A DNA stretch of 64,000 nt, taken from the NCBI RefSeq assembly GCF_011045215.1, contig NZ_CP049201.1; one strand, 5' to 3'. The notes below the pieces were generated by a model that did no database searches, was not told where the DNA came from, and saw only the letters and a list, made by a program, of their open reading frames with translations. Shown here piece after piece: positions 1-64,000 of this stretch. Origin of the DNA: Escherichia coli. GTDB lineage: Bacteria; Pseudomonadota; Gammaproteobacteria; Enterobacterales; Enterobacteriaceae. Within the stretch, counting starts at the first letter, position 1; every line of letters starts with the position of its first letter. The position numbers and the translations under genes are program-made.

Positions 1-1694
<1,694 letters not shown>

Positions 1695-1696
1695 CA

Positions 1697-2038
1697 ATGC
1701 GAATATTTGTCTACGGCAGTTTACGCCACAAACAAGGCAACAGTCACTGGATGACCAATGCCCAGTTACTGGGCGATTTCAGTATCGATAACTACCAGTT
1801 GTATAGCCTGGGCCACTATCCAGGCGCAGTTCCGGGGAACGGAACGGTACACGGTGAAGTTTATCGTATTGACAACGCCACGCTGGCCGAACTTGATGCC
1901 TTGCGCACCAGGGGCGGTGAATACGCGCGCCAGTTGATTCAGACGCCGTACGGGAGTGCATGGATGTACGTTTATCAACGACCCGTCGATGGATTAAAGC
2001 TAATTGAAAGCGGCGACTGGTTAGACAGGGATAAGTAA
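1697..2038 (+). CDS. ytfP: Gamma-glutamylcyclotransferase-family protein YtfP
   Basis: 113 aa, MRIFVYGSLRHKQGNSHWM N-terminus (GGCT/AIG2-like fold signature YGSL); conserved synteny. Confidence 0.85.
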   Translation: MRIFVYGSLRHKQGNSHWMTNAQLLGDFSIDNYQLYSLGHYPGAVPGNGTVHGEVYRIDNATLAELDALRTRGGEYARQLIQTPYGSAWMYVYQRPVDGLKLIESGDWLDRDK

Positions 2039-2050
2039 CCATATGCATAC

Positions 2051-2076
2051 GCCACCTTCGGGTGGCGTTGTTTTTT
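2051..2076 (+). terminator. Rho-independent terminator after ytfP
   Basis: GCCACC-TTCG-GGTGGC hairpin followed by GTTGTTTTTT. Confidence 0.6.
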
Positions 2077-2249
2077 GCGAGACGACTCGCATTCTGTTTT
2101 GTAATTCCCTCACCTTTTGCTTTTCTCTCCGAGCCGCTTTCCATATCTATCAACGCATAAAAAACTCTGCTGGCATTCACAAATGCGCAGGGGTAAAACG
2201 TTTCCTGTAGCACCGTGAGTTATACTTTGTATAACTTAAGGAGGTGCAG

Positions 2250-2501
2250 ATGCGTATTACCATAAAAAGATGGGGGAACAGTGCAGGTATGGTCATTCCC
2301 AATATCGTAATGAAAGAACTTAACTTACAGCCGGGGCAGAGCGTGGAAGCGCAGGTGAGCAACAACCAACTGATTCTGACACCCATCTCCAGGCGCTACT
2401 CGCTTGATGAACTGCTGGCACAGTGTGACATGAACGCCGCGGAACTTAGCGAGCAGGATGTCTGGGGTAAATCCACCCCTGCGGGTGACGAAATATGGTA
2501 A
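2250..2501 (+). CDS. chpS: Antitoxin ChpS (ChpBI) of the chpB toxin-antitoxin pair
   Basis: 83-aa product MRITIKRWGNSAGMVIP... (AbrB/MazE-like); 4-bp overlap with downstream toxin gene; SD GGAGG upstream. Confidence 0.85.
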   Translation: MRITIKRWGNSAGMVIPNIVMKELNLQPGQSVEAQVSNNQLILTPISRRYSLDELLAQCDMNAAELSEQDVWGKSTPAGDEIW

Positions 2502-2845
2502 AGAAAAGTGAATTTGAACGGGGAGACATTGTGCTGGTTGGCTTTGATCCAGCAAGCGGCCATGAACAGCAAGGTGCTGGTCGACCTGCGCTTGTGCTCT
2601 CCGTTCAAGCCTTTAATCAACTGGGAATGACGCTGGTGGCCCCCATTACGCAGGGTGGAAATTTTGCCCGTTATGCCGGATTTAGCGTTCCTTTACATTG
2701 CGAAGAAGGCGATGTGCACGGCGTGGTGCTGGTTAATCAGGTGCGGATGATGGATCTACGCGCCCGGCTGGCAAAGCGTATTGGTCTGGCTGCGGATGAG
2801 GTGGTGGAAGAGGCGTTATTACGCTTGCAGGCGGTGGTGGAATAA
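2495..2845 (+). CDS. chpB: mRNA interferase toxin ChpB (ChpBK), MazF/PemK family
   Basis: 116 aa; MazF-like sequence; overlaps antitoxin gene stop. Confidence 0.85.
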   Translation: MVKKSEFERGDIVLVGFDPASGHEQQGAGRPALVLSVQAFNQLGMTLVAPITQGGNFARYAGFSVPLHCEEGDVHGVVLVNQVRMMDLRARLAKRIGLAADEVVEEALLRLQAVVE

Positions 2846-2924
2846 GGTGTGTTTATTTATCGCGGGCATAAAAAAACCCTTACTAACCGAAGCCCGGCGT
2901 TCAGGGTTATTACGCCAGAAGAAC

Positions 2925-3455
2925 TTATTTATTCTTTGCGCGCTCGAAGGAGGCAACGATTTCAGCTTTAGCGGCTTCTGCGTTTTCCCAACCTTCAACT
3001 TTCACCCACTTGCCTTTTTCGAGGTCTTTGTAGTGCTCGAAGAAGTGAGCGATTTGCGCTTTCAGCAGTTCAGGCAGATCGTTAACGTCTTTAATGTGAT
3101 CGTATTCTTTGCTCAGCTTGCTGTGCGGAACCGCAACCAGTTTCGCATCTTCACCGGCTTCGTCGGTCATTTTCAGAACGCCAACCGGACGGCAACGGAT
3201 CACAGAACCCGGCTGCAGCGGGTACGGAGTTGGGACCAGTACGTCAACTGGGTCACCGTCCAGAGACAGGGTGTGGTTGATGTAACCGTAGTTGCACGGA
3301 TAGAACATCGCGGTGGACATGAAGCGGTCAACGAACAGTGCGCCGCTCTCTTTGTCGATTTCGTATTTGATCGGATCTGCGTTAGCCGGGATCTCAATAA
3401 CAACGTAGATGTCTTCCGGCAGATCTTTACCCGCAGGGACGTTGAGTAAGCTCAT
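2925..3455 (-). CDS. ppa: Inorganic pyrophosphatase
   Basis: 176 aa [23 protein letters not shown]...; family I PPase. Confidence 0.92.
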
Positions 3456-3764
3456 GTCTGTTTCCTTTAAAAATATGTGGCAAACAAGTGCCGAGTATTA
3501 TAGCCAACTCGCGCCGAATGTCTTCGCTTGTTTTCGTCTTCATTTTCCTTTTTCACCAGTTTTAAGACGGTATACAGAGCAGGAAAATCCATAACCGTAG
3601 CCGCATTTTTCATAGTGAGATGAAAGCGATTACAAACTTGTGATTAACGTTTTATTTACTTTTTTGAAGTGTGATGTAACGCAATCCGTTACATAACGAA
3701 TTGTCTATAGTTTTTTCGCGAACATCTTTTCACCAATAATAATTACTCCGACGAGGACAACCCT

Positions 3765-4721
3765 ATGTGGAAACGCTTACTTGTAGTCTCTGCAGTCTCG
3801 GCAGCCATGTCGTCTATGGCGTTGGCCGCTCCATTAACCGTAGGATTTTCGCAGGTCGGATCGGAATCCGGCTGGCGCGCCGCAGAAACCAATGTGGCGA
3901 AAAGTGAGGCCGAAAAACGCGGAATTACGTTGAAAATTGCCGATGGTCAGCAAAAGCAGGAAAACCAGATTAAAGCGGTACGTTCCTTCGTTGCACAAGG
4001 GGTGGATGCGATCTTTATCGCTCCGGTGGTCGCGACAGGTTGGGAACCGGTATTAAAAGAGGCGAAAGATGCCGAAATCCCGGTCTTCTTGCTCGACCGT
4101 TCCATCGATGTGAAAGACAAATCTCTCTATATGACCACCGTTACTGCCGACAACATCCTCGAAGGTAAGTTGATCGGTGACTGGCTGGTAAAAGAAGTGA
4201 ATGGCAAACCATGCAACGTGGTGGAGCTGCAGGGCACCGTTGGGGCCAGCGTCGCCATTGACCGTAAGAAAGGCTTTGCCGAAGCCATTAAGAATGCGCC
4301 AAATATCAAAATTATCCGCTCGCAGTCAGGTGACTTCACCCGCAGTAAAGGCAAAGAAGTCATGGAGAGCTTTATCAAAGCGGAAAACAACGGCAAAAAC
4401 ATCTGCATGGTTTACGCCCATAACGACGACATGGTGATTGGTGCAATTCAGGCAATTAAAGAAGCGGGCCTGAAACCGGGCAAAGATATCCTCACGGGTT
4501 CCATTGACGGTGTACCGGACATCTACAAAGCGATGATGGATGGCGAAGCGAACGCCAGTGTTGAACTGACGCCGAACATGGCGGGACCCGCTTTTGACGC
4601 GCTGGAGAAATACAAAAAAGACGGCACCATGCCTGAAAAGCTGACGTTAACCAAATCCACCCTTTACCTGCCTGATACCGCAAAAGAAGAGTTAGAGAAG
4701 AAGAAAAATATGGGGTATTGA
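3765..4721 (+). CDS. ytfQ: Galactofuranose ABC transporter periplasmic binding protein
   Basis: 318 aa with N-terminal signal peptide, sugar-binding-protein-like; operon with ytfRT-yjfF. Confidence 0.85.
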   Translation: MWKRLLVVSAVSAAMSSMALAAPLTVGFSQVGSESGWRAAETNVAKSEAEKRGITLKIADGQQKQENQIKAVRSFVAQGVDAIFIAPVVATGWEPVLKEAKDAEIPVFLLDRSIDVKDKSLYMTTVTADNILEGKLIGDWLVKEVNGKPCNVVELQGTVGASVAIDRKKGFAEAIKNAPNIKIIRSQSGDFTRSKGKEVMESFIKAENNGKNICMVYAHNDDMVIGAIQAIKEAGLKPGKDILTGSIDGVPDIYKAMMDGEANASVELTPNMAGPAFDALEKYKKDGTMPEKLTLTKSTLYLPDTAKEELEKKKNMGY

Positions 4722-4730
4722 GGGTTGCTA

Positions 4731-4842
4731 TGCCTGATGCCGATTCGTAGGCCGGATAAGGCGCTCGCGCCGCATCCGGCGATGGTGCACTGAAGCCTGA
4801 TGCGACGCTTACCGCGTCTTATCATGCCTACTGGGAGCACGC
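4731..4842. repeat. REP/BIME repetitive extragenic palindrome cluster
   Basis: Copies of GCCTGATGCGACGC...CGTCTTATCAGGCCTAC / GCCGGATAAGGCG...CGCATCCGGC motifs between ytfQ and ytfR. Confidence 0.8.
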
Positions 4843-4860
4843 TTTACACCGGGGGAAACC

Positions 4861-6363
4861 ATGACGACCGACCAACACCAGGAGATCCTCCGCACCGAAG
4901 GATTAAGTAAATTTTTCCCCGGCGTCAAAGCGTTAGACAACGTTGATTTCAGCCTGCGCCGTGGCGAAATCATGGCGCTGCTCGGTGAAAACGGGGCGGG
5001 AAAATCAACGCTAATCAAAGCATTAACTGGTGTATACCATGCCGATCGCGGCACCATCTGGCTGGAAGGCCAGCCTATCTCACCGAAAAATACCGCCCAC
5101 GCGCAACAACTCGGCATTGGCACCGTCTATCAGGAAGTAAACCTGCTACCCAATATGTCGGTCGCTGATAATCTATTTATAGGCCGCGAACCCAAACGCT
5201 TCGGCCTTCTACGCCGCAAAGAGATGGAAAAGCGCGCCACCGAACTGATGGCATCTTACGGTTTCTCCCTCGACGTGCGCGAACCGCTCAACCGCTTTTC
5301 AGTCGCGATGCAGCAAATCGTCGCTATTTGCCGGGCTATCGATCTCTCTGCCAAAGTGCTGATCCTCGATGAACCCACCGCCAGTCTCGACACCCAGGAA
5401 GTGGAGTTACTGTTTGACCTGATGCGTCAGTTGCGCGATCGCGGCGTCAGCCTGATTTTTGTCACTCACTTTCTCGATCAGGTCTATCAGGTCAGCGATC
5501 GGATCACCGTCTTACGCAACGGCAGTTTCGTAGGCTGTCGGGAAACGTGCGAGCTACCGCAGCTCGAACTGGTAAAAATGATGCTGGGGCGCGAGCTGGA
5601 TACCCACGCGCTACAGCGTGCCGGGCGAACATTGTTGAGCGACAAACCCGTTGCCGCGTTCAAAAATTACGGCAAAAAAGGAACGATCGCACCGTTTGAT
5701 CTCGAAGTACGCCCCGGCGAGATCGTCGGTCTGGCTGGATTGCTGGGATCAGGACGTACCGAAACCGCCGAAGTGATCTTCGGTATCAAACCTGCTGACA
5801 GCGGCACGGCGTTGATCAAAGGCAAACCGCAAAACCTGCGATCGCCACATCAGGCTTCGGTACTGGGCATTGGCTTCTGCCCGGAAGACAGGAAAACCGA
5901 TGGCATCATCGCTGCCGCCTCGGTGCGGGAAAATATCATCCTCGCTCTCCAGGCCCAGCGCGGCTGGCTACGTCCCATTTCCCGCAAAGAGCAGCAAGAG
6001 ATTGCCGAACGCTTTATCCGCCAGCTTGGCATTCGCACACCTTCAACTGAACAACCGATTGAATTTCTCTCCGGCGGCAATCAGCAAAAAGTGTTGTTTT
6101 CACGTTGGCTACTGACCCGACCGCAATTTCTGATCCTCGATGAGCCAACCCGCGGCATTGATGTTGGTGCCCACGCCGAGATCATCCGCCTGATTGAAAC
6201 GCTATGCGCCGATGGTCTGGCGCTGCTGGTGATCTCCTCCGAACTGGAAGAACTGGTGGGCTATGCCGACCGGGTGATTATCATGCGCGATCGCAAACAG
6301 GTGGCGGAGATCCCGCTGGCAGAGCTTTCCGTTCCGGCGATCATGAACGCCATTGCGGCGTAA
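4861..6363 (+). CDS. ytfR: Sugar ABC transporter ATP-binding protein (tandem ABC domains)
   Basis: 500 aa; Walker A GENGAGKST, signature LSGGNQQK, Walker B LILDEPT; two ATPase domains. Confidence 0.88.
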   Translation: MTTDQHQEILRTEGLSKFFPGVKALDNVDFSLRRGEIMALLGENGAGKSTLIKALTGVYHADRGTIWLEGQPISPKNTAHAQQLGIGTVYQEVNLLPNMSVADNLFIGREPKRFGLLRRKEMEKRATELMASYGFSLDVREPLNRFSVAMQQIVAICRAIDLSAKVLILDEPTASLDTQEVELLFDLMRQLRDRGVSLIFVTHFLDQVYQVSDRITVLRNGSFVGCRETCELPQLELVKMMLGRELDTHALQRAGRTLLSDKPVAAFKNYGKKGTIAPFDLEVRPGEIVGLAGLLGSGRTETAEVIFGIKPADSGTALIKGKPQNLRSPHQASVLGIGFCPEDRKTDGIIAAASVRENIILALQAQRGWLRPISRKEQQEIAERFIRQLGIRTPSTEQPIEFLSGGNQQKVLFSRWLLTRPQFLILDEPTRGIDVGAHAEIIRLIETLCADGLALLVISSELEELVGYADRVIIMRDRKQVAEIPLAELSVPAIMNAIAA

Positions 6364-6373
6364 GGAGAACAGT

Positions 6374-7399
6374 GTGATGCCTCAATCTCTTCCGGACACC
6401 ACTACGCCAAAAAGGCGCTTTCGCTGGCCGACGGGGATGCCGCAGCTGGTAGCACTATTGCTGGTGCTGCTGGTCGATAGCCTGGTAGCCCCGCATTTCT
6501 GGCAGGTGGTGCTTCAGGATGGGCGTTTGTTCGGTAGCCCCATAGACATTCTTAACCGTGCAGCTCCCGTTGCGTTACTGGCGATTGGCATGACGCTGGT
6601 GATCGCCACCGGTGGGATTGATCTCTCCGTAGGGGCGGTGATGGCTATCGCCGGAGCCACAACGGCTGCGATGACGGTCGCGGGATTCAGCCTGCCGATT
6701 GTTTTGTTAAGCGCCCTGGGCACCGGCATCCTGGCGGGATTGTGGAACGGCATACTGGTAGCGATCCTCAAAATTCAGCCGTTTGTCGCCACTCTGATCC
6801 TGATGGTCGCCGGGCGCGGCGTGGCGCAACTGATCACCGCCGGGCAGATCGTCACGTTTAACTCGCCGGATCTCTCATGGTTCGGCAGTGGATCGCTGTT
6901 GTTCCTGCCAACGCCGGTCATTATCGCGGTGCTGACGCTTATCCTGTTCTGGCTGTTGACCCGCAAAACGGCGCTGGGGATGTTTATCGAAGCCGTTGGT
7001 ATCAACATTCGGGCGGCAAAAAATGCCGGGGTAAACACGCGGATCATCGTCATGCTTACCTACGTGTTGAGCGGGCTGTGTGCGGCGATTGCGGGCATTA
7101 TCGTGGCGGCGGATATTCGCGGTGCCGATGCCAATAACGCCGGATTATGGCTGGAGCTGGACGCCATTCTCGCGGTGGTGATTGGCGGTGGTTCGCTGAT
7201 GGGCGGACGTTTTAACCTACTGCTTTCGGTGGTGGGGGCGCTGATTATTCAGGGGATGAACACCGGAATTTTGCTTTCGGGCTTTCCGCCAGAGATGAAC
7301 CAGGTGGTGAAAGCGGTGGTGGTTCTTTGCGTGCTGATTGTCCAGTCGCAACGCTTTATCAGTCTGATTAAAGGAGTACGTAGCCGTGATAAAACGTAA
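6374..7399 (+). CDS. ytfT: Sugar ABC transporter permease
   Basis: Polytopic membrane protein; SD AGGAG before GTG/ATG at 6374/6377; ORF track start 6353 probably too early. Confidence 0.8.
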   Translation: MMPQSLPDTTTPKRRFRWPTGMPQLVALLLVLLVDSLVAPHFWQVVLQDGRLFGSPIDILNRAAPVALLAIGMTLVIATGGIDLSVGAVMAIAGATTAAMTVAGFSLPIVLLSALGTGILAGLWNGILVAILKIQPFVATLILMVAGRGVAQLITAGQIVTFNSPDLSWFGSGSLLFLPTPVIIAVLTLILFWLLTRKTALGMFIEAVGINIRAAKNAGVNTRIIVMLTYVLSGLCAAIAGIIVAADIRGADANNAGLWLELDAILAVVIGGGSLMGGRFNLLLSVVGALIIQGMNTGILLSGFPPEMNQVVKAVVVLCVLIVQSQRFISLIKGVRSRDKT

Positions 7400-45182: not shown

Positions 45183-45267
45183 GCCGAAGTGGCGAAATCG
45201 GTAGACGCAGTTGATTCAAAATCAACCGTAGAAATACGTGCCGGTTCGAGTCCGGCCTTCGGCACCA
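45183..45267 (+). tRNA. leuX: tRNA-Leu (anticodon CAA)
   Basis: 85-nt sequence GCCGAAGTGGCGAAATCGGTAGACGCAGTTGATTCAAAATCAACC...GGTTCGAGTCCGGCCTTCGGCACCA; anticodon loop TTCAAAA; long variable arm; CCA end. Confidence 0.93.
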
Positions 45268-45456: not shown

Positions 45457-46707
45457 ATGGCACTTACTGATATCAAAGTTAGGACTACCAAGCCCTCCGA
45501 CAAACCTTTCAAACTCACAGATGGGCAGGGTATGCACCTGCTGATCAACCCCAATGGTTCAAAATACTGGCGACTCCAATACCGTTTCGATGGCAAACAG
45601 AAAGTTTTAGCATTGGGTGTTTATCCAATGGTCTCTCTTGGTGAAGCTCGCAGGAAACGAGATGAGGCTAAAAAGTTGGTATCTGATGGTATCGACCCTT
45701 CCGAGAAGAAAAAGGCAGACAAGATCGAGCAGAGCGAAGCTCTTACTTTTGAATCTGTTGCCAGGGACTGGCATAAGGCTTGTAAAAGGAAATGGTCAGA
45801 TTCCCATAGCGAGAGAGTTCTAAAAAGCATGGAAGATGGTCTCTTTACTGCTCTTGGTAAAAGAAAAATATCCGAGCTTAATACCAGAGATCTTCTTGCC
45901 CCTATCAAGGCTGTTGAAGCTTCTGGGCGACTGGAAGTTGCTTCCCGCCTACAGCAAAGAACAACGGCAGTGATGCGATATGCTGTCCAGAACGGGCTGA
46001 TAGATTACAACCCTGCCCAGGAGATGGCAGGAGCTATTGCAGTAGCTAAAAGAGTCCACAGGCCAGCTTTGCCATTCGAACGATTCTCAGAACTTTTAGA
46101 ACGAATTGATAGTTTCAAGGGTAGAAAACTCACGAAGTTAGCCGTAAAGCTGACATTGCTCATTTTCATTCGTTCCAGTGAACTTAGGTTTGCTCGTTGG
46201 TCAGAGATAGATTTCGACAATGCCATGTGGACTATCCCTGGGGAACGTGAGCCATTGCCAGGGGTCAAACATTCTCATCGAGGCTCAAAAATGAAGACAC
46301 CACACCTCGTGCCGTTAAGTCGCCAGGCTATAGAACTCCTCAAAGCTATCAAAGAAATCAGCGGTGAATGTGAACTTGTATTCATTGGTGATCATGATTT
46401 TAGAAAGCCTATGAGTGAAAACACGGTAAACAAGGCTTTAAGGTCTATGGGCTACGACACTACGGTTGAAGTATGTGGACATGGTTTTCGTGCGATGGCA
46501 TGTAGTGCGTTGATCGAATCGGGAAAATGGTCAAGGGATGCTGTTGAACGGCAGATGAGCCACCAAGAGCGAAACTCCGTTCGTGCTGCCTACATTCATA
46601 AAGCAGAACACCTTGATGAAAGAAGGCTTATGTTGCAGTGGTGGGCTGATTACCTTAATGCCTTGAAAGATAGGTTTATCAGTCCCTTTGATTTTACAAC
46701 AAAGTAG
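45457..46707 (+). CDS. intB: P4-family tyrosine integrase (IntB-like) with N-terminal DUF4102-type domain
   Basis: 416 aa, MALTDIKVRTTKPSDKPFKLTDGQGMHLLINPNGSKYWRLQYRFDGKQK N-terminus typical of tRNA-associated island integrases; C-terminal HGFRAMA...R...Y catalytic region; lies 190 bp from the leuX 3' end. Confidence 0.9.
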   Translation: MALTDIKVRTTKPSDKPFKLTDGQGMHLLINPNGSKYWRLQYRFDGKQKVLALGVYPMVSLGEARRKRDEAKKLVSDGIDPSEKKKADKIEQSEALTFESVARDWHKACKRKWSDSHSERVLKSMEDGLFTALGKRKISELNTRDLLAPIKAVEASGRLEVASRLQQRTTAVMRYAVQNGLIDYNPAQEMAGAIAVAKRVHRPALPFERFSELLERIDSFKGRKLTKLAVKLTLLIFIRSSELRFARWSEIDFDNAMWTIPGEREPLPGVKHSHRGSKMKTPHLVPLSRQAIELLKAIKEISGECELVFIGDHDFRKPMSENTVNKALRSMGYDTTVEVCGHGFRAMACSALIESGKWSRDAVERQMSHQERNSVRAAYIHKAEHLDERRLMLQWWADYLNALKDRFISPFDFTTK

Positions 46708-46794: not shown

Positions 46795-47934
46795 ATGTCC
46801 ACAATTAACCCCGCAATTTTTTCTTTTTTCTCTGGTTCAGGATTTCTTGATCTTGGATTTGAAAAAAATGGTTATGAAGTGGTTTTCGTGAATGAATACC
46901 ATGCTCCGTTTATGGATGCATATAAACATTCGAGGAAAAAATTAAATATAGCACCACCTCGTTTTGGGTATGCAGAGTGCAGTATTGAAGATGTAGAACA
47001 TGAAAAAATTAAGTCTTCTATGCTTCAACTTAAAAATGAGGGGCGATTGACTGGATTTATTGGTGGTCCACCATGCCCGGATTTCTCTGTAGCGGGTAAA
47101 AATAAAGGTCGAGATGGTGAAAACGGTCGGCTTTCACAAAGCTATATTGATATCATTCTTGAAATGAAACCAGATTTCTTTCTTTTTGAGAATGTTAAAG
47201 GTCTATACCGTACCAGTAAACATAGGGAATTTTTTGACCATTTAAAAACTCAATTAGAATCGGTTGGTTATTGTTTGCATGAAAAACTAATAAATTCTAT
47301 TGAATATGGTGCTCCTCAAGATAGGCAACGAATCATATTGATTGGTTTCCTTGATGAAAAATATGCAAGCCAATTCAATTGGGGGCAAAGAGTCTACCCT
47401 GAAAGAACTGCATTTGAATATAAATGGCCGACGACAAACCAATTTTCAGAAAACACTTCTGTTATAAAACCAAAGGGTATCCCAGAAGAGTTAACAGTAG
47501 AGCATTGGTTCAAGAAAAACCAGGTTGATAATCATCCAAATGCAAAGCATGTATTCGCGGCAAGAGCAGGGCTTGCGAGGTTTTTGACTGTCGAAGAAGG
47601 GGATGATAGTAAAAAATCCTATAAAAGGTTACATAGATGGAGATTTTCACCAACTGCTGCTTACGGTAATAATGAGGTACATTTACATCCTTATAAACCA
47701 AGAAGAATTACTGTTGCCGAAGCATTAGCAATTCAGTCTTTACCAAAAGAATTTGAATTACCTGCTTATATGACTCTGTCTAATATGTTTAAAACTGTCG
47801 GTAACGGTGTACCCTACTTAGCAGCGGCCGGTATTGCCAAATCTATTATAGAGCATTTAGGAATCGAATATGAGAGTAACTGCGGCGAACTTAGCACAGG
47901 CGATTGCCAATCTACCAAGAAACACGCAGTTTAA
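46795..47934 (+). CDS. DNA (cytosine-5)-methyltransferase
   Basis: 379 aa with C5-MTase motifs: I FSGSGFLDLGFE (FxGxG), IV GGPPCPDFS (Pro-Cys), VI FLFENV, VIII QDRQR, X GNGVP near C-terminus; AT-rich. Confidence 0.85.
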   Translation: MSTINPAIFSFFSGSGFLDLGFEKNGYEVVFVNEYHAPFMDAYKHSRKKLNIAPPRFGYAECSIEDVEHEKIKSSMLQLKNEGRLTGFIGGPPCPDFSVAGKNKGRDGENGRLSQSYIDIILEMKPDFFLFENVKGLYRTSKHREFFDHLKTQLESVGYCLHEKLINSIEYGAPQDRQRIILIGFLDEKYASQFNWGQRVYPERTAFEYKWPTTNQFSENTSVIKPKGIPEELTVEHWFKKNQVDNHPNAKHVFAARAGLARFLTVEEGDDSKKSYKRLHRWRFSPTAAYGNNEVHLHPYKPRRITVAEALAIQSLPKEFELPAYMTLSNMFKTVGNGVPYLAAAGIAKSIIEHLGIEYESNCGELSTGDCQSTKKHAV

Positions 47935-49083: not shown

Positions 49084-49893
49084 ATGAGAGTAATTAGCCC
49101 CTTTGAGGAATTGAAGAACTGGTTTAATCTTGATAACTATGAACCGATAAAATCGTTTACAATCAAGGAACTACATAGAGAGATTGTCTTTAGAGAAGCG
49201 ATTTTCGACAGTGTAAATTTTGGATGGGAAGATGATAATCAAAATTTAAGGTCTATCCTTGAAGGTAATCCTATTTTAAGCAGACAAGATAATAATCATG
49301 GTCATTTTGGCAAGGGCCAAAGACATGTTGCGCAGGTTAGCTTTGGTGATATAAAAAAATTAGAGAATAAGTTGATAATGTTTAGCATGGATTTTTTTGA
49401 AGAAAATGGTGATTTCAAAAAAGAGTTGAAAAAGAAACCAATAACAAAAACTATGAGAGACTTTTTTCTCAACAAAAATAGCAGCAAGATGTATGTATCA
49501 TTTGATTTGGGGTTATCTAGTGATGAGGAAATTATATCAGCCCTGCAAACTATGCTTCCAACTCTAAGGAAAGAATACGAGATTGACCCAGTAAAAACAG
49601 AAAAGATAGGGCTCGCAAAAATAAGAAAACTTGTCGATTACAACATTATTCCTATGATGGACTTACTAATTTGGTCAAAATTCAAAAAAGCAAAAATCTC
49701 AAATATGGTCTTGTCTCGTGTGTTGTATCCTGATTTCACTCACGAGATTAGAGGCGAAGATCACATTAAAGATACAGACAGGCCCATTGCTGAGAAGGCT
49801 TTAAATGGAGAGATAACTCGTAGTTTGGAGTACTTTCTTAGTAAAAACAGTCATCTCATCAACATACCGATTTCAGAACTCGGATCTCTCTAG
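49084..49893 (+). CDS. Hypothetical protein (269 aa), no recognisable motif
   Basis: Long AT-rich ORF, same strand as R-M-like pair. Confidence 0.55.
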   Translation: MRVISPFEELKNWFNLDNYEPIKSFTIKELHREIVFREAIFDSVNFGWEDDNQNLRSILEGNPILSRQDNNHGHFGKGQRHVAQVSFGDIKKLENKLIMFSMDFFEENGDFKKELKKKPITKTMRDFFLNKNSSKMYVSFDLGLSSDEEIISALQTMLPTLRKEYEIDPVKTEKIGLAKIRKLVDYNIIPMMDLLIWSKFKKAKISNMVLSRVLYPDFTHEIRGEDHIKDTDRPIAEKALNGEITRSLEYFLSKNSHLINIPISELGSL

Positions 49894-57259: not shown

Positions 57260-58405
57260 CTATAAACGAATTTTTATCGCCTTGTTTAAAGGTTTCATTG
57301 CGTAGATATTTGAGAAGGTCGTGTGTGTTTTGTGAAGAATGGTCTTACCAAAGCTTCTCAGAAGCTCGATGTAATGCTTTATGGAAGCAAGCCACTCTAC
57401 GAATCTGAGATGCTTTTGCCGTTGTACTGCATTTTTTTGAAGAATCTTTCCTACGATTTCGTTTCGTTTGTCTTCTCTAAGCCGTAATTCCAGTTCTGCA
57501 ATTTTTTCAACGATACTTTCCTTTCTCTCAGTGGTTTTCAACACTGTTGCAGGAGCAGGAGCAGCAGGTTGGTCTTTTGTCGATATGTCGCTTCGTAGAG
57601 CTTCTAAGTGGTCGGGGTTGTAGTTAAGCCGATTACTGAGATTTGCCCAGGAGTAGCTCTTGCCCAATTGTGAAGCTTTGAAAGCTATGCCTGTGTATTC
57701 GAAAGAGAAGCCGTTCATTTTACCGGTAGAGGCAATATTGGCCTTCCAAGATACTTCAGCTTCTTCCAGCCTCTTGATAAAAGTTAGAAGGTCCGGCTTA
57801 TCAGATAAACTTTTATCAAGTATCTGCTGCAGAGCTTCTCTTGGTGAAAGCACCCCGGTTCGTTCCGATAGCATTTTCTCATTACGGGACACTCTCTTCC
57901 GCTTCGGTTGTGCTTGCGAGGGGGGAGATGCAGTTTTGGTCACTGTCAGGCCATGAGCGATTTCGAGTTTACTGATGATCTGTGTGCTGATGAGGTTTTC
58001 GTTCCTACCCAAGTAGAGCTTCCCACCATTGAGATCTATGCGACTTGCGATAATGTGTATGTGCTGGCCATCGTCGTCATGAAGCACATAGCAACGAAGG
58101 TGAGTATCCCTGAACCCCATCCTCTTCATGTAGTCATCTGCGATAATGGACCACTGTTCATTCGTTAGTGTTTCACCGTCGGGTAAGCGAAGTGAGTTGT
58201 GCCAAACGGGTTTTGCGACATCTAGGCGAAGATGCTTGGTGCTATCGAATTCAGCGATCATTTCAACGGCTGAATCACTTAACATGTTCCCGCCAATGAC
58301 GACTGGATCGCTTTTGTGGTGTGCTCCCGATTGTAATACATAACGAACAACACCAGCGAAGCTCTTACCCCTCTTGATCTTCCGCATACCCTTCACGAGG
58401 GACAC
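57260..58405 (-). CDS. Mobilisation relaxase (MobA/VirD2-like nuclease domain)
   Basis: 381 aa; three-histidine relaxase motif HDDDGQHIHIIASRIDL; immediately downstream of a MobC-like gene. Confidence 0.75.
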   Translation of the reverse strand: MSLVKGMRKIKRGKSFAGVVRYVLQSGAHHKSDPVVIGGNMLSDSAVEMIAEFDSTKHLRLDVAKPVWHNSLRLPDGETLTNEQWSIIADDYMKRMGFRDTHLRCYVLHDDDGQHIHIIASRIDLNGGKLYLGRNENLISTQIISKLEIAHGLTVTKTASPPSQAQPKRKRVSRNEKMLSERTGVLSPREALQQILDKSLSDKPDLLTFIKRLEEAEVSWKANIASTGKMNGFSFEYTGIAFKASQLGKSYSWANLSNRLNYNPDHLEALRSDISTKDQPAAPAPATVLKTTERKESIVEKIAELELRLREDKRNEIVGKILQKNAVQRQKHLRFVEWLASIKHYIELLRSFGKTILHKTHTTFSNIYAMKPLNKAIKIRL

Positions 58406-58739
58406 TCCAAAAATCTGTTCTTAACAAGTTGTGACGAAGCTCTTCAAGTTGTCGCTTCACAGCGAAAAGCTCTGTATGAGTAAGCTGGCTATCTTTACTC
58501 TTACTGTCGATATGGAGAGCAATACGATTCAACTTTTGTGATATGTCAGACAATTTTTTCCAGGCTTCAGTATTAATTGTCGGTACTACTGGTGGCAGGT
58601 TTTGCAGAAATGACATGCGGAGCCATTCACCTTTACTTTTATTACCTCGTTTTATATTTAAAATCTGTAATTCATTGTTGTTGAGTCGAACACTTATACA
58701 ATGTATTCTAATTCTGTCATCTAATCTTAATTTAGCCAT
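58365..58739 (-). CDS. MobC-family relaxosome accessory protein
   Basis: 124 aa; overlaps relaxase start by 41 nt; sequence pattern typical of MobC. Confidence 0.65.
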   Translation of the reverse strand: MAKLRLDDRIRIHCISVRLNNNELQILNIKRGNKSKGEWLRMSFLQNLPPVVPTINTEAWKKLSDISQKLNRIALHIDSKSKDSQLTHTELFAVKRQLEELRHNLLRTDFWSVPREGYAEDQEG

Positions 58740-58885: not shown

Positions 58886-60049
58886 TTAAGGATGATCTAT
58901 TGAAACAAACTTTTGACTAAACTCCAGCCATCTTGCATTATCAACATCCTTCACAAAAGCAATCAGACCTGCGACATGATTGTAAAAGCCAATTGGAGAG
59001 TCAAATTTTTCATGTCTTGCAACTTCTGAGAGACCAAATTTTTTTATTGAGTAAAGGTGGCGTTCAATACGTTTATAAGTTTGTTTAGATAATCGAGGGA
59101 CATTGCCATCAACAAGTAATCCTAAAACTATTTTTTTTGAACCAGGTCCAGCTACTCTTATTTTGCTTACGTTTTCTTTGAAATGGTGCTTACGAATGAT
59201 GCTGATAATGTTATTTTGTATTTTTCCAACCGAAACACCGTCGGGTAGAGTACCACCGCAGGATAATGTTATATCATCAGCATATCGAGTATAAGTGAAG
59301 CCATATTTATTAGCATATTCAGATAGAGAAATATCTAACTTTACAGTGGCTAAATTACTAAGCATTGGGCTACTCGGTGCCCCTTGAGGTAGCACTCCTA
59401 ACGGCCATGGTTCTGATATGTCCCAAAAAAGGCTCTTCTCTTTATTTTGTCCGTAAAGCTTATATTCCTTAGTTGAGTGCTTAGGAACAGAAATTAGAGA
59501 TTGTAAATGTTGTGGTAAACGTATAGTTGTGCATAGCCTTGATAGTTCAAATGCTATTAATGGCCGATATCCAGCATTTTTAAAAACCATATAAACATCA
59601 GATTCATTTATTGAATAAAAGAAATCGGAAATGTCGAATTGGAAGAGCCATTTAGCACCACAATGCTGTTCTGCACATTTTCTGATGCCACCATTAGGAT
59701 GGAAAGCAAAAGAAGTATTATGGGGAACTAACTTTTTTAATATTTCACTATTGATGAAATGCTGTACTTTAAATATCTCGCCAGTTACAGCATGAATATG
59801 GCGTCTTCCACCTGAACGTTTTTTTATAGCAAACATGCGATAATTTGCTGATTCACGGCGGCGTGATACAGTGGATCGTAGCAAGCGATAATCAACACCA
59901 GTAATTTTTGAAAGATGGCGTAATGTAAAAATTACAGGGAGATTATTTTTCTTCAGATTACTTGCATAATTTCTTAAGTTTAGAGCCTGTGTCTTCCCTA
60001 AGGATGACTCTGCATTTTGATAAAGTTGGTGTGCTGACCAGATTTCCAT
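58886..60049 (-). CDS. Retron-type reverse transcriptase
   Basis: 387 aa; RT motifs FQFDISDFF (A), LPQGAPSSP (B'), YTRYADDITLS (C); by-eye alignment to remembered retron Ec86 RT (QGAPSSP.LANL...YTRYADDLTLS, IDLEDFFPS); C-terminal VLGLLV in place of the retron VTG. Confidence 0.85.
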   Translation of the reverse strand: MEIWSAHQLYQNAESSLGKTQALNLRNYASNLKKNNLPVIFTLRHLSKITGVDYRLLRSTVSRRRESANYRMFAIKKRSGGRRHIHAVTGEIFKVQHFINSEILKKLVPHNTSFAFHPNGGIRKCAEQHCGAKWLFQFDISDFFYSINESDVYMVFKNAGYRPLIAFELSRLCTTIRLPQHLQSLISVPKHSTKEYKLYGQNKEKSLFWDISEPWPLGVLPQGAPSSPMLSNLATVKLDISLSEYANKYGFTYTRYADDITLSCGGTLPDGVSVGKIQNNIISIIRKHHFKENVSKIRVAGPGSKKIVLGLLVDGNVPRLSKQTYKRIERHLYSIKKFGLSEVARHEKFDSPIGFYNHVAGLIAFVKDVDNARWLEFSQKFVSIDHP

Positions 60050-60237
60050 TCACCTATCCTTTGAGCCCAGGGGGCCATCAGTGTCATACATTTTCCGAGT
60101 CCTCGATGGCCGTTAATGTATGACATTGAAGGGCGGCGTAGCCGCCTTTGCGTCAGATCTTTCCAGAGATGTTTCTCCAACATCCCCATCCGTTGTAACA
60201 AAAGCCACAACAGATTCTGTCAAACAAGCGGTGAACT
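60050..60237 (-). ncRNA. Candidate structured ncRNA (possible retron msr-msd-like template) in the PRTase-RT spacer
   Basis: 188-nt non-coding spacer directly upstream of the RT; 15-bp stem (60078-60092 pairs with 60115-60129, one G-U) with 22-nt loop; adjacent GGCGGC-GTA-GCCGCC hairpin (60132-60146). Confidence 0.4.
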
Positions 60238-61458
60238 TCACTCATCATTGTTTAACGGCTGAACGGAGTGCTGATCAGCACACCAAGACTCTGGAATGTA
60301 AAGACCAAAATCCCATACACTATCGTTTTTAACATGCCTAGAATTTACAAGTATGTCAAGTCCGAATTTAGATAATCGTTTTTGAGTTGTCAATAGTCCT
60401 AATGTCTCTGCATATATGAGTAGTTTTTCTACATACGAACAATCAACATTCAAACGTAAGGCAATGCTTTTGTTATCTCTGACACCTCTTTTTATAAGTT
60501 TTAGTAAATTTATAATTTCGGGAGATAAAGATGAATGGGGGGAAGTGTTATGCTTTGTTCCATTTTCTAACAAGGCAAGCAGCCATCCTGGAATTGCTCT
60601 ATCAGGCATTAGTCCTTGCCATTTTTTATTAGAAAACCATAGTATTCCAGGAAGGTTATTAGGGACGCTATGATAAAAAATTATATTAGATAAAACATTA
60701 CCATAGCCAAGACGAGCCCATGGAGGAATTTTGGTTTGATTTTTACAAAGATTGATTATTTCATTATACTGCTCACCCCACCGAGTTTCTAACCAATTTT
60801 CATTATATACGATGTTACTTATGAAATTGATTTTTTCAGATTTTCTATATTTTCTTACTCCATGGTCTGAGCCGCGAATAGTATTGATTATTCTATTTTC
60901 AGAACCTAGTGTTCTGGCGAAAGAAATTAAAGTTAATCTTACTAGTCCTAAACTCCACCAACTTAAAAAGGTAGGGTTATCGAGCATGGCATTAATAAAT
61001 CCGGATACTCTATCACCACTACCAATCGAATCATCAATAAGTAAAAAATCGTTGACTTTAGATTTTTTCAGATCATTGAGTGATGGATGATCTAAAAACA
61101 TAGTTTTATTAGACCGCACAAGGTTTGAAATAATTGAATATACTAAGTCTTCGCTACCTTGCGAATGACCTGGTCTATTAACAACATCACCATTAAGGTC
61201 CCATAATACTTGTTTGTCTGGATCTAATTTGCGAACTGAATAAAGGGCATAATTTTTATTTTTTGGTAAATCAGAAATGCTCTTTTGAAGCCATATGGTA
61301 AACTCATCTCTACTTACAAAAGTTAACTTGCTCAAGATGTTTTTTGCAATCGCTTTTTGGCTGCTATTAAATTGCATAAGCCATTGAGCTATTTCCTGAG
61401 AGGATTCAATTTTTTCTACTGAAAGTATTTTAAATTTAGGTTTGTCTCTTGTTTTCAT
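60238..61458 (-). CDS. Phosphoribosyltransferase-like protein (putative RT-associated effector)
   Basis: 406 aa; PRPP-binding-like motif KVNDFLLIDDSIGSGDR (hydrophobic strand, DD, small-Gly); encoded immediately upstream of and co-directional with the RT. Confidence 0.55.
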   Translation of the reverse strand: MKTRDKPKFKILSVEKIESSQEIAQWLMQFNSSQKAIAKNILSKLTFVSRDEFTIWLQKSISDLPKNKNYALYSVRKLDPDKQVLWDLNGDVVNRPGHSQGSEDLVYSIISNLVRSNKTMFLDHPSLNDLKKSKVNDFLLIDDSIGSGDRVSGFINAMLDNPTFLSWWSLGLVRLTLISFARTLGSENRIINTIRGSDHGVRKYRKSEKINFISNIVYNENWLETRWGEQYNEIINLCKNQTKIPPWARLGYGNVLSNIIFYHSVPNNLPGILWFSNKKWQGLMPDRAIPGWLLALLENGTKHNTSPHSSLSPEIINLLKLIKRGVRDNKSIALRLNVDCSYVEKLLIYAETLGLLTTQKRLSKFGLDILVNSRHVKNDSVWDFGLYIPESWCADQHSVQPLNNDE

Positions 61459-61693
61459 TTTTTTTAACCACTGTCAGGGCAATTGTTATTTCATAACATA
61501 AAAAGTAATGATGGTAAAGGTTTTGTTGTATCATTAACCTTCTTTATAACTGAGTAGACTAAGTTTAGTACTCTTATACGAAGCTAAATGAGCTAAATAT
61601 TAAATACTAAAATGTAATGGCGGATATTTTTCAACCGAAGGGCGAAAAACAAGGGAACGCAAAGAAGCGGAGCTTCGATGAGTTAGCCCTTGC

Positions 61694-62296
61694 TTATTCA
61701 TATGATTTGTATTTCTTTTCATCTACTAAATTTATTATGGACGATGAGGTTTTATATATCAACTTTACATTGTGTAAAGATATATTGTGTTTGCTAATAA
61801 AATATAAAAGATCCAATAGCATCTGTTCTTGCCGTTCTTGTGGAAACTCTAATTTTACGATTGGAGTAAATTCAACAATAAAACCACTATTCAACAGTAG
61901 TTTTATGTAGCTAAATGAGTTTGGCGTAACTGTTTTGATTTTTATTATTTTATTAGTAATTAGATGCTTATGGTTTATAATAATGTGAGGGTTGAGCAGT
62001 GCCATATCATATGACATGAATGTTAAACCATGACTATCTATTATGTTCAAGTCGATACCAAGTTGTATAAACATATCGATTATTGCTTTGCTATGTATCC
62101 AGTTATAAAATAAAGGTGTCCTTCCATAGTTATCTAAATGATTTAGGTCGGCTCCTGCAGCTAAAAGAGATGTTGTAAGTAAATAGTCATTAGAATAAAA
62201 TAATGGTGTACGACCACAATTATCCTTTAAGTTTATTAAACCATTGTCTATGAATATATTAGATAAATTATTGTGCATTTTACCTCCTTTTATCAT
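61694..62296 (-). CDS. Ankyrin-repeat protein
   Basis: 200-aa ORF; two clear ankyrin repeats (GRTPLFYS...LLAAGADLNHLDNYGRTPLFY) plus degenerate third (DSHGLTFMS). Confidence 0.6.
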   Translation of the reverse strand: MIKGGKMHNNLSNIFIDNGLINLKDNCGRTPLFYSNDYLLTTSLLAAGADLNHLDNYGRTPLFYNWIHSKAIIDMFIQLGIDLNIIDSHGLTFMSYDMALLNPHIIINHKHLITNKIIKIKTVTPNSFSYIKLLLNSGFIVEFTPIVKLEFPQERQEQMLLDLLYFISKHNISLHNVKLIYKTSSSIINLVDEKKYKSYE

Positions 62297-62339
62297 TATG
62301 TATATTAAAAAAAGGAGGTTGTCAATATTTAGAGGTTAG

Positions 62340-62588
62340 TTAACCACCAAATGTTTTTTTCTTAGGTTGTGGGGGCTCTGCATTAAGTATGATAGTTTTA
62401 ATATTTGCATTTATTTGATTGATATTATCAGTCAATATATTAATAACTGATAATGCTTCTACAGGTGTGCTAAATGATGATTCTAAAAACACGCCTGAGC
62501 CTTTCAAAAATATATGGTAAGTGAGTATGCCATTTTCTTCATTTTCATATATATCATAAAGTTCATTTACTGTTTCGTACAATTTCAT
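62340..62588 (-). CDS. Hypothetical small protein (82 aa)
   Basis: ORF between the ATPase-partner pair and the ankyrin gene. Confidence 0.45.
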   Translation of the reverse strand: MKLYETVNELYDIYENEENGILTYHIFLKGSGVFLESSFSTPVEALSVINILTDNINQINANIKTIILNAEPPQPKKKTFGG

Positions 62589-63528: not shown

Positions 63529-64000
63529 TTAATTTTCAATATCAGGAGTATTAAATGATCCTGTCATAATGGTATACATATCAATTGATTGCTGGTCAAA
63601 GAATCCTTTCGGCCAACTAGAAAGTTTTCCATCTTTGCCAATAGATATCTTTTCTGCAGTAGATTCATTATTCTCATGTGAAATATAAAATAACGAAATT
63701 AGCTCAGGTGAAAAGTCAGGAGATGTTCTTGCTACGACACGGATTCCGTTGAGAAGGTGATCGCTATGAGTTTCTATGAATACCTGTACTCCCGCTTGAG
63801 CAGTGTAAGCTATTAATCTACCCATATAGCTTTGTCCTCTAGGGTGCAAATGGGCTTCCGGGTTTTCTAAAACTACTAATTCGCCCGGTTTTGCTAAAAG
63901 TAATGCTGAAACAATACTCAAAGCATAGCTATAACCAAAACCAATGTTTTTGGGTTTAGTTTGTTTTCCTGACTCAGCCTGTATTGTGTTATAAGCAATG
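63529..64000 (-). CDS. ABC/AAA15-type ATPase, C-terminal part (DUF3696-like); 5' end beyond window
   Basis: Frame open to window edge (ORF-track 'M' is TTG); ...GFGYSYALSIVSALLLAKPGELVVLENPEAHLHP (signature/Walker B/D-loop) and FIETHSDHLL (H-loop). Confidence 0.7.
   Translation of the reverse strand, partial: IAYNTIQAESGKQTKPKNIGFGYSYALSIVSALLLAKPGELVVLENPEAHLHPRGQSYMGRLIAYTAQAGVQVFIETHSDHLLNGIRVVARTSPDFSPELISLFYISHENNESTAEKISIGKDGKLSSWPKGFFDQQSIDMYTIMTGSFNTPDIEN

Follow-up and report, generated by a model that had tools for sequence, protein, structure and literature searches.

A stretch of 64,000 nucleotides (nt) from the Escherichia coli contig NZ_CP049201.1 (assembly GCF_011045215.1), referred to here as the window, carries two small neighbouring genes, one for an ankyrin-repeat protein (Ank) and one for an orphan protein of 82 amino acids (aa). 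They lie between a type III-A retron and the defence system Menshen (nsnA, nsnB and nsnC), which is said to go back to work by Millman in 2022. Very probably, this pair forms the distal end of a cassette, made up of nsnC plus cargo, in the variable slot of a mobilisable island of the GInt type. The slot would extend from the conserved genes nsnA-nsnB to a hairpin and a backbone of MobC and relaxase genes, in an island located beside tRNA-Leu (leuX) in E. coli. As for function, we tentatively favor the possibility that the pair is independent cargo for genetic conflict and not a subunit of Menshen. The GInt vehicle, Menshen, the type III-A retron and variable defence slots are all known already, and the novelty resides in the Ank/82-aa pair as cargo. 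A literature search retrieved no published work on either gene.

A co-occurrence matrix was obtained by tblastn over all fetched loci, among which were 22 other enterobacterial loci with the two genes. All of these displayed the gene order NsnA-NsnB-NsnC-82aa-Ank, and they spanned at least eight species of Enterobacterales. Identical or nearly identical copies were found in E. coli, E. albertii, Salmonella, Klebsiella, Enterobacter, Erwinia amylovora and Serratia liquefaciens, labelled in the databases as hypothetical or 'ankyrin repeat domain-containing' proteins, and the pair was missing from all 5,426 complete E. coli genomes searched. NsnC was at least 94% identical (aa) across the 22 loci, and the pair stayed with this nsnC allele while recombination reshuffled the alleles of nsnB, MobC and relaxase on either side. 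Specifically, loci in which NsnC, the 82-aa protein and Ank were 96-98% identical (aa) shared only 71-81% of MobC and only 69-98% of the relaxase residues, and two alleles of the nsnB 3' end (95.7% vs 99.2-99.7% nt identity) were joined to the same nsnC-82-Ank block. In E. coli IAI1 and enterotoxigenic E. coli (IAI1/ETEC), nsnB was shared at 88-96% nt identity and the homology ended 37-185 nt inside nsnC.

Five different cassettes were found between nsnB and MobC, with NsnB 95-98% identical (aa) throughout. That of the window consists of an NsnC of 291 aa, the 82-aa gene and Ank. The IAI1/ETEC cassette comprises an NsnC of 298 aa (46-51% identity), PD-T4-5 (9e-65) and two hypothetical proteins, and IAI1 also contains a 394-bp gap free of open reading frames (ORFs). 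Klebsiella contributes an NsnC of 298 aa (48-49%) followed by genes of 123 and 86 aa, and Salmonella an NsnC of 292 aa (56%) followed by a 179-aa membrane protein. The last one is a decayed variant (L016), which continues after an Ank pseudogene with genes of 398 and 138 aa (positions 2779-4384 of that locus, minus strand); the 138-aa protein weakly matched the C-terminal part of the PADLOC NsnC model (5e-5) and may represent a stand-alone NsnC-effector-like domain. In the Menshen loci of Vibrio cholerae and Enterobacter cloacae (NsnC 39-40%), the operon ended at nsnC and the next gene was convergent. The pair was therefore present in one of the six NsnC lineages sampled, while three of the other five had different genes and two were empty. 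Between IAI1 and Klebsiella, NsnC identity fell from 82-96% in the initial ~90 aa to 56-66% in the C-terminal third, and the genes downstream differed. Menshen is thus a mosaic, with breakpoints either at the nsnB/nsnC junction or within nsnC.

Menshen has been defined as a system of three components, namely NsnA (ParB-DUF262), NsnB (ABC ATPase with DUF3696) and NsnC (inPIN plus effector), and the systematic survey names no ankyrin or fourth gene (PMC12065111). Since the pair is absent from five other NsnC lineages and the survey names no such gene, it is not a general Menshen component; neither protein matched an Nsn model in PADLOC. The first-pass annotation had described the two ORFs as lying between a PRTase-RT module (phosphoribosyltransferase and reverse transcriptase) and an ATPase pair, had considered them as a possible accessory component, immunity or antitoxin factor, or independent small system, and had proposed a test of co-occurrence with either module. 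The PRTase-RT module is indeed present, and PADLOC identified it as the type III-A retron. The ATPase pair belongs to Menshen, and only half of the description holds, as NsnB is an ABC-type ATPase but NsnC is not an ATPase. Co-occurrence with this second module was complete among the 22 enterobacterial loci, but these loci form one near-clonal cassette (89-99% nt identity), so that the linkage is one by descent.

On the other hand, no linkage to the reverse transcriptase appeared. Genes for RT or PRTase were found in 0/22 of the other loci, and in those long enough to tell (L009, L026-L035 and L042-L044) Ank was followed directly by MobC and the relaxase. Conversely, E. coli DETEC-S792 (L021) carries the same retron (RT 99%, PRTase 97% aa identity) beside MobC and relaxase, with no Ank, 82-aa gene or Menshen and with unrelated genes beyond the retron and hairpin. 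Because of these two observations, the pair is unlinked to the retron, and only by chance does it stand between two defence modules in this genome. A role as accessory genes of the retron, for which adjacency and a common strand can be cited in this window only, is thus refuted by co-occurrence and we consider it hardly credible; the conserved retron-plus-hairpin block moreover stops at the Ank stop codon. A retron between mobC and the hairpin was seen solely in the window and in DETEC-S792. The MobC proteins of these two differ from the others at the N-terminus (124 aa vs 145 aa), which indicates that the retron-bearing mobilisation backbone is a distinct allele and not the product of a simple insertion.

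The two ORFs were confirmed on the minus strand, the same strand as their neighbours, and all are co-directional with gaps of 55 nt between nsnC and the 82-aa gene and 61 nt between the latter and Ank. Strong Shine-Dalgarno sites precede both ORFs, that of the 82-aa ORF (AAGGAG) being placed 7 nt 5' of its ATG. The Ank ORF does measure 200 aa, as first described, from an ATG at 62296; the next five codons are AAGGAGGT, after which a second ATG occurs at 62278. Since homologues with 60% identity begin at the methionine matching ATG 62278, and identical genes are annotated by NCBI as 194 aa, the genuine gene is most likely the shorter one (61694-62278, 194 aa). The dN/dS of Ank against the 60% homologue was 0.21, and among intact alleles of the 22 related loci pN/pS was 0.25 for Ank, 0.37 for the 82-aa gene, 0.15 for nsnC and 0.11 for the nsnB 3' end, i.e., constraint on the pair is weaker than on nsnB and nsnC. 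Ank was intact in 19 of the 22 loci and the 82-aa ORF was open in all of them. The three exceptions were a locus in which an insertion sequence (IS) cuts Ank while Menshen is intact (L015), and two with a degraded Ank in which nsnB and nsnC were broken as well (L016 and L017). Judging from these substitution patterns, Ank and the 82-aa gene are genuine coding genes under purifying selection, and the low pN/pS together with intactness in most loci, across eight species, suggests that their function has been kept in Enterobacterales.

Profile searches supported the assignment of Ank to the ankyrin-repeat proteins. It scored 30.8 bits with Pfam Ank_4 (cut-off 22.7) and slightly under the cut-off with Ank_2 (24.9 against 27.3), and a profile of its family retrieved consensus ankyrin/DARPin chains from PDB (E = 4e-18 to 1e-8) over residues ~6-99. 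Two repeats of the GRTPLFY type and a degenerate third one are visible in the sequence. Ankyrin repeats (two to three) thus account for the N-terminal ~100 aa and the rest is non-ankyrin; the C-terminal ~95 aa are basic (isoelectric point, pI, 9.5) and predicted to form an alpha/beta domain, and residues 100-194 had no relative in a word-seeded search. The sole PADLOC match was PDC-M72A (0.0016), restricted to the ankyrin part, and the best NCBIfam matches were Legionella Dot/Icm ankyrin effectors, far under their cut-offs. Both proteins of the pair are extremely rare, with three clusters at 90% identity each among 5.8 billion proteins. No relative of Ank closer than a generic ankyrin protein from Poseidonibacter (34%) was found in 100,044 species-representative genomes, none was found in IMG/VR or in phages, and plasmids yielded only a Ralstonia ankyrin protein (33%).

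The sole divergent relatives of Ank were the homologues with 60% identity (P0002 and P0003), which derive from metagenomic contigs of up to 335 kb with a guanine-cytosine (GC) content of 23% (L001-L008 and L023; JGI 3300073834 Ga0596915_0000008 and others). Their neighbours are leucine-rich repeat (LRR)-like proteins, another ankyrin protein and paralogous families of 250-400 aa, and no Menshen, 82-aa gene, reverse transcriptase or recognisable defence gene was found around them. The paralogous families share a C-terminal K-K/R-R-I/L motif, perhaps a signal for sorting. A run of more than 25 genes on these contigs lacked any Pfam match. Searches with Pfam and PHROGs were uninformative as to the nature of the contigs, as were a scan for tRNAs, which detected none, and tblastn, which returned neither phages nor plasmids. 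The first pass had reasoned that homologues scattered among unrelated neighbours would speak against a link to defence, and this is partly what we observed, since the 60% homologue has no defence genes nearby whereas the enterobacterial loci keep Menshen. On the 23% GC contigs Ank stands alone, so it has no strict need of the 82-aa protein as a partner.

The company of these homologues raises the possibility that the pair are passengers with no part in conflict, that is, a eukaryote-like Ank acquired from a low-GC, host-associated source plus an unrelated orphan ORF. The Legionella effectors among the NCBIfam matches, the low GC content of the two genes (~30% each), the breakage of Ank in 3/22 loci and the weaker constraint than on nsnB and nsnC are all in line with this explanation. 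However, the pair is constrained and mostly intact across eight species, elsewhere the slot holds defence genes (PD-T4-5 and the retron), and the island has neither a secretion signal nor a secretion system. We regard mere passengers as quite unlikely.

The 82-aa protein has a pI of 4.75, with an acidic core (pI 4.3, residues 1-70). Its three clusters share 84-97% identity, and an exhaustive phmmer search of 1.84 billion representatives returned its own cluster and three long repetitive proteins only. It matched no family in Pfam, PADLOC, NCBIfam or PHROGs. Structure prediction, which had been proposed from the outset as a way forward, produced an AlphaFold2 (AF2) model with a pLDDT of 79 that combines a beta-hairpin with a long helix and leaves the PPQPKKK tail disordered, but this model had no fold match in PDB or BFVD. 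A HicB-like or other antitoxin fold, suggested by the beta-beta-alpha pattern, was rejected, as it was unsupported by Pfam or by the PDB profile search and the best Foldseek hits had E = 0.47 in PDB and E = 0.02 in BFVD, the latter all uncharacterised. For either protein, no homology to a toxin, antitoxin or immunity family was found in Pfam, NCBIfam, PADLOC, PHROGs or PDB sequence and fold searches, and no anti-restriction, anti-CRISPR or anti-SOS similarity was found in general family and fold libraries. Likewise, PHROGs, the phage search and BFVD revealed no similarity to a phage protein structure or family. In a Klebsiella-type locus (L038), nsnC is followed 36 bp on by a co-directional 123-aa orphan (6933-7304) that ends in KPTSKKLGL, and the 82-aa protein, which ends in PQPKKKTFGG, resembles it in position and basic tail. 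Homology between the two was rejected (hhalign probability 0.1%).

The place of the 82-aa gene directly behind nsnC bears on the foremost competing explanation, according to which the pair are lineage-specific Menshen accessories, with the 82-aa protein (with or without Ank) restraining or tuning this NsnC allele, or adding a sensing surface. The common strand, the short gaps and the lack of a terminator before the end of Ank all fit such a role, and the pair was never found apart from this nsnC allele although both flanks recombine. In addition, the IAI1 and Klebsiella NsnC proteins diverge C-terminally and are followed by different genes, so that exchange moves the nsnC 3' half jointly with its followers. 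Many nuclease inhibitors are acidic, as is the core of the 82-aa protein, and a small co-directional ORF behind nsnC is also present in the Klebsiella cassette. On the other hand, NsnC with the same conserved C-terminal region occurs with no follower in IAI1, Vibrio and E. cloacae, the 82-aa and 123-aa followers are dissimilar, and the Menshen survey lists no fourth gene. The disruption of Ank in L015 next to an intact nsnABC, and the Ank homologue alone on the 23% GC contigs, also argue against it. Overall, we consider an accessory role possible but doubtful.

The distal border of the cassette is marked by a long hairpin (-25.3 kcal/mol, z = -3.4). It is the sole terminator-like site in the scanned region, and none was found between nsnC, the 82-aa gene and Ank. 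Related hairpins were located at ~5502-5555 of L009, ~2669-2711 of L016 and 6001-6070 of L022, those behind Ank in L009 (z = -5.3) and L016 (z = -7.7) being divergent in sequence yet fully paired. The window's hairpin also occurs ~120 bp 5' of mobC in the retron-less E. coli CFSAN061761, and the 23 nt past it on the MobC side (TTTTTCGCCCTTCGGTTGAAAAA) were identical in three loci. In 20 or more loci the hairpin stands beside MobC and the relaxase, with the Ank and 82-aa genes pointing towards it, and it lies where recombination separates the cargo from the MobC-relaxase backbone. It had no match in 72,556 plasmids, so no known origin of transfer (oriT) could be recognised. The hairpin probably terminates the nsnABC-82-Ank transcript, or is a candidate for the oriT inverted repeat of the mobilisation module, or both.

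In retron-less relatives, the pair are the first two genes across this oriT-like hairpin from the relaxase, and they might serve the island in anti-defence or establishment. Leading regions are rich in anti-defence genes encoded on a single strand, as described for several MOB types including MOBQ (PMC11541004). The proximity of the hairpin to MobC and relaxase, the orientation of the genes (facing the hairpin, on the same strand as the mobilisation genes) and this enrichment agree with such a role, for which a small acidic protein and a repeat protein would be plausible inhibitors. However, the oriT is a candidate only, matchless among the plasmids, and the 23 conserved nt lie past the repeat on the MobC side. 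By analogy with the conserved side of known oriTs, this would place Ank in the last-transferred end. The pair also co-varies with nsnC and not with the relaxase or MobC alleles, resembles no phage protein structure or family, and a leading region running straight into a defence operon would be odd. An anti-defence role is, in our view, improbable.

Among these explanations we return to independent conflict cargo. Under this hypothesis, the Ank and 82-aa genes would be transcribed by read-through from the Menshen operon, extending its 3' end, and would be lineage-specific passengers of the kind represented by other slot fillers, e.g., PD-T4-5. Their role would most likely be in phage or mobile-element conflict, via protein binding, with the ankyrin half of Ank as the binding surface and its basic alpha/beta C-terminal half as the output; the 82-aa protein would partner or inhibit Ank, or act separately from it. 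Several observations weigh against this hypothesis. No homology assigns a function to either protein, and the 82-aa protein has no relatives. The perfect linkage to one nsnC allele is equally compatible with a functional partnership with NsnC and with hitch-hiking between two recombination anchors and, because the loci are one young lineage (89-99% nt), 22/22 does not amount to 22 independent observations. The promoter scan was uninformative in this AT-rich DNA (22 sites vs 15.5 expected), and co-transcription is inferred. The loss or breakage of Ank in three of 22 loci, above all the IS-cut copy beside intact Menshen, shows that Ank is dispensable, while being silent on its role. Finally, the 60% homologue is found among LRR-like and effector-like genes, which hints at a role other than phage defence.

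Bolder interpretations were also considered, namely two versions of the idea that the pair is an unrecognised two-gene conflict module; taken together, we judge them unlikely. In the first version, the genes would be a new anti-phage or anti-defence pair, with ankyrin repeats as the sensor fused to a basic alpha/beta domain of a novel type. In the second, they would be the first case of Menshen nsnC 3' cassettes with cognate partner genes, as in polymorphic toxin-immunity cassettes, and Menshen would gain a layer of regulation or immunity. If functional in conflict, the pair, small (two genes, 1 kb) and amenable to testing, would be a candidate for a new defence or counter-defence system or a Menshen modulator, and one that has already spread to E. 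coli, Salmonella, Klebsiella, Enterobacter, Erwinia and Serratia. If a mere passenger, it would be ordinary uncharacterised cargo of a defence island of a familiar type. The recombination-bounded slot from the nsnB/nsnC junction to the hairpin by MobC, in which nsnC alleles are swapped along with various small genes, is a useful place to seek new systems.

The features of the window are listed in Table 1. The nsnB gene is open to the window end with no stop and is 97-99% identical to a full-length NsnB of 383 aa, and nsnA is located past the window edge. The position of the retron non-coding RNA (msr/msd) was inferred from conservation with retron-bearing E. coli; no Rfam match to it or elsewhere in the region was obtained. 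Following the definition of GInts in PMC5385486 and PMC10121019, three adjacent tyrosine-recombinase-type genes and a short fourth one were recognised; Pfam Phage_integrase matched the first two (9.6e-17 and 1.2e-6) and not the third. In L009 and L026-L035, too, the 82/Ank block is flanked by this string of genes. GInts have been published as defence-carrying elements in E. coli, with Menshen among their cargo (PMC10121019; PMC5385486). The window is chromosomal, its pepA-lptFG region being 98% identical to O55:H7 E. coli, and an island of 32-39% GC begins at tRNA-Leu(CAA)/leuX (45183-45267) and reaches the window end. A second variable zone was observed 5' of nsnA in related loci. Across L026-L035 (~1-4900) its contents vary and include a 1171-aa helicase-PLD protein, ScoMcrA-like HNH proteins, genes with DUF1156/DUF499, type I restriction-modification, RES-domain or SymE toxins, or else a P4-type integrase accompanied by P2 capsid-like genes.

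Table 1. Features of the window discussed in the text, with positions counted from its first nucleotide.
Feature	Position	Strand	Remarks
Ankyrin-repeat gene (Ank)	61694..62278	minus	194 aa from likely start; longest ORF extends to 62296, 200 aa
82-aa orphan protein gene	62340..62588	minus	AAGGAG Shine-Dalgarno; same as WP_164476015.1
Long hairpin	61645..61693	.	~20-bp stem, 3-nt loop, T/U run; abuts Ank stop codon
nsnC, Menshen effector, 291 aa	62644..63519	minus	PADLOC NsnC 6.3e-94; not an ATPase
nsnB 3' part, ABC-type ATPase with DUF3696	63529..64000	minus	PADLOC NsnB 1.8e-56; Pfam DUF3696/AAA_21
Type III-A retron	58886..61626	minus	PADLOC RT_III-A 5.6e-160, PRTase_III-A 2e-93
Retron, RT	58886-60049
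Retron, PRTase-wHTH (winged helix-turn-helix)	60238-61458
Retron, presumed msr/msd	61459-61626
Mobilisation module	57260..58739	minus	MobC-like 58365-58739; MobA/VirD2-type relaxase 57260-58405, Pfam PF03432 1.3e-23
GInt/Tn6571-type module	50894-55460		Genes of 420, 441, 535 and 132 aa
P4-type integrase	45457-46707		Composite island at leuX
C5 DNA methylase	46795-47934		Overlapping 358-aa gene, may be a restriction partner
DUF6387	49084-49893		Composite island at leuX

Compared with known systems, the island resembles GInt/Tn6571 elements in its three tyrosine-recombinase-type genes and 132-aa gene, followed by cargo (PMC5385486; PMC10121019). This likeness concerns the vehicle and not the function of the Ank and 82-aa genes. 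With the anti-defence genes of leading regions (PMC11541004), the pair shares a location by an oriT-like repeat opposite the relaxase, a single strand and small proteins. Unlike them, its oriT and polarity are candidates only, it has no known anti-defence similarity, and it follows nsnC. Polymorphic toxins provide another parallel: the classification of Zhang and Aravind is said to comprise C-terminal toxin cassettes with their immunity genes, ankyrin-type immunity proteins included. As in those cassettes, a variable effector 3' part is swapped with small followers, here an acidic and an ankyrin protein; in contrast, the pair has no immunity homology, NsnC C-termini occur followerless and the followers are mutually unrelated.

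Menshen itself is defined by three genes, and the pair, which matches none of its models, is missing in five NsnC lineages; it does, however, lie directly 3' of the complete operon, co-directional with it, and shares the fate of the polymorphic nsnC. PD-T4-5 (Abi_2 family) is an experimentally validated single-gene defence and is listed by PADLOC as an anti-phage defence protein, whereas the pair has no recognised domain beyond the ankyrin repeats. Yet in E. coli IAI1, PD-T4-5 occupies the same nsnC-to-MobC slot, in the same island family and co-directional with Menshen.

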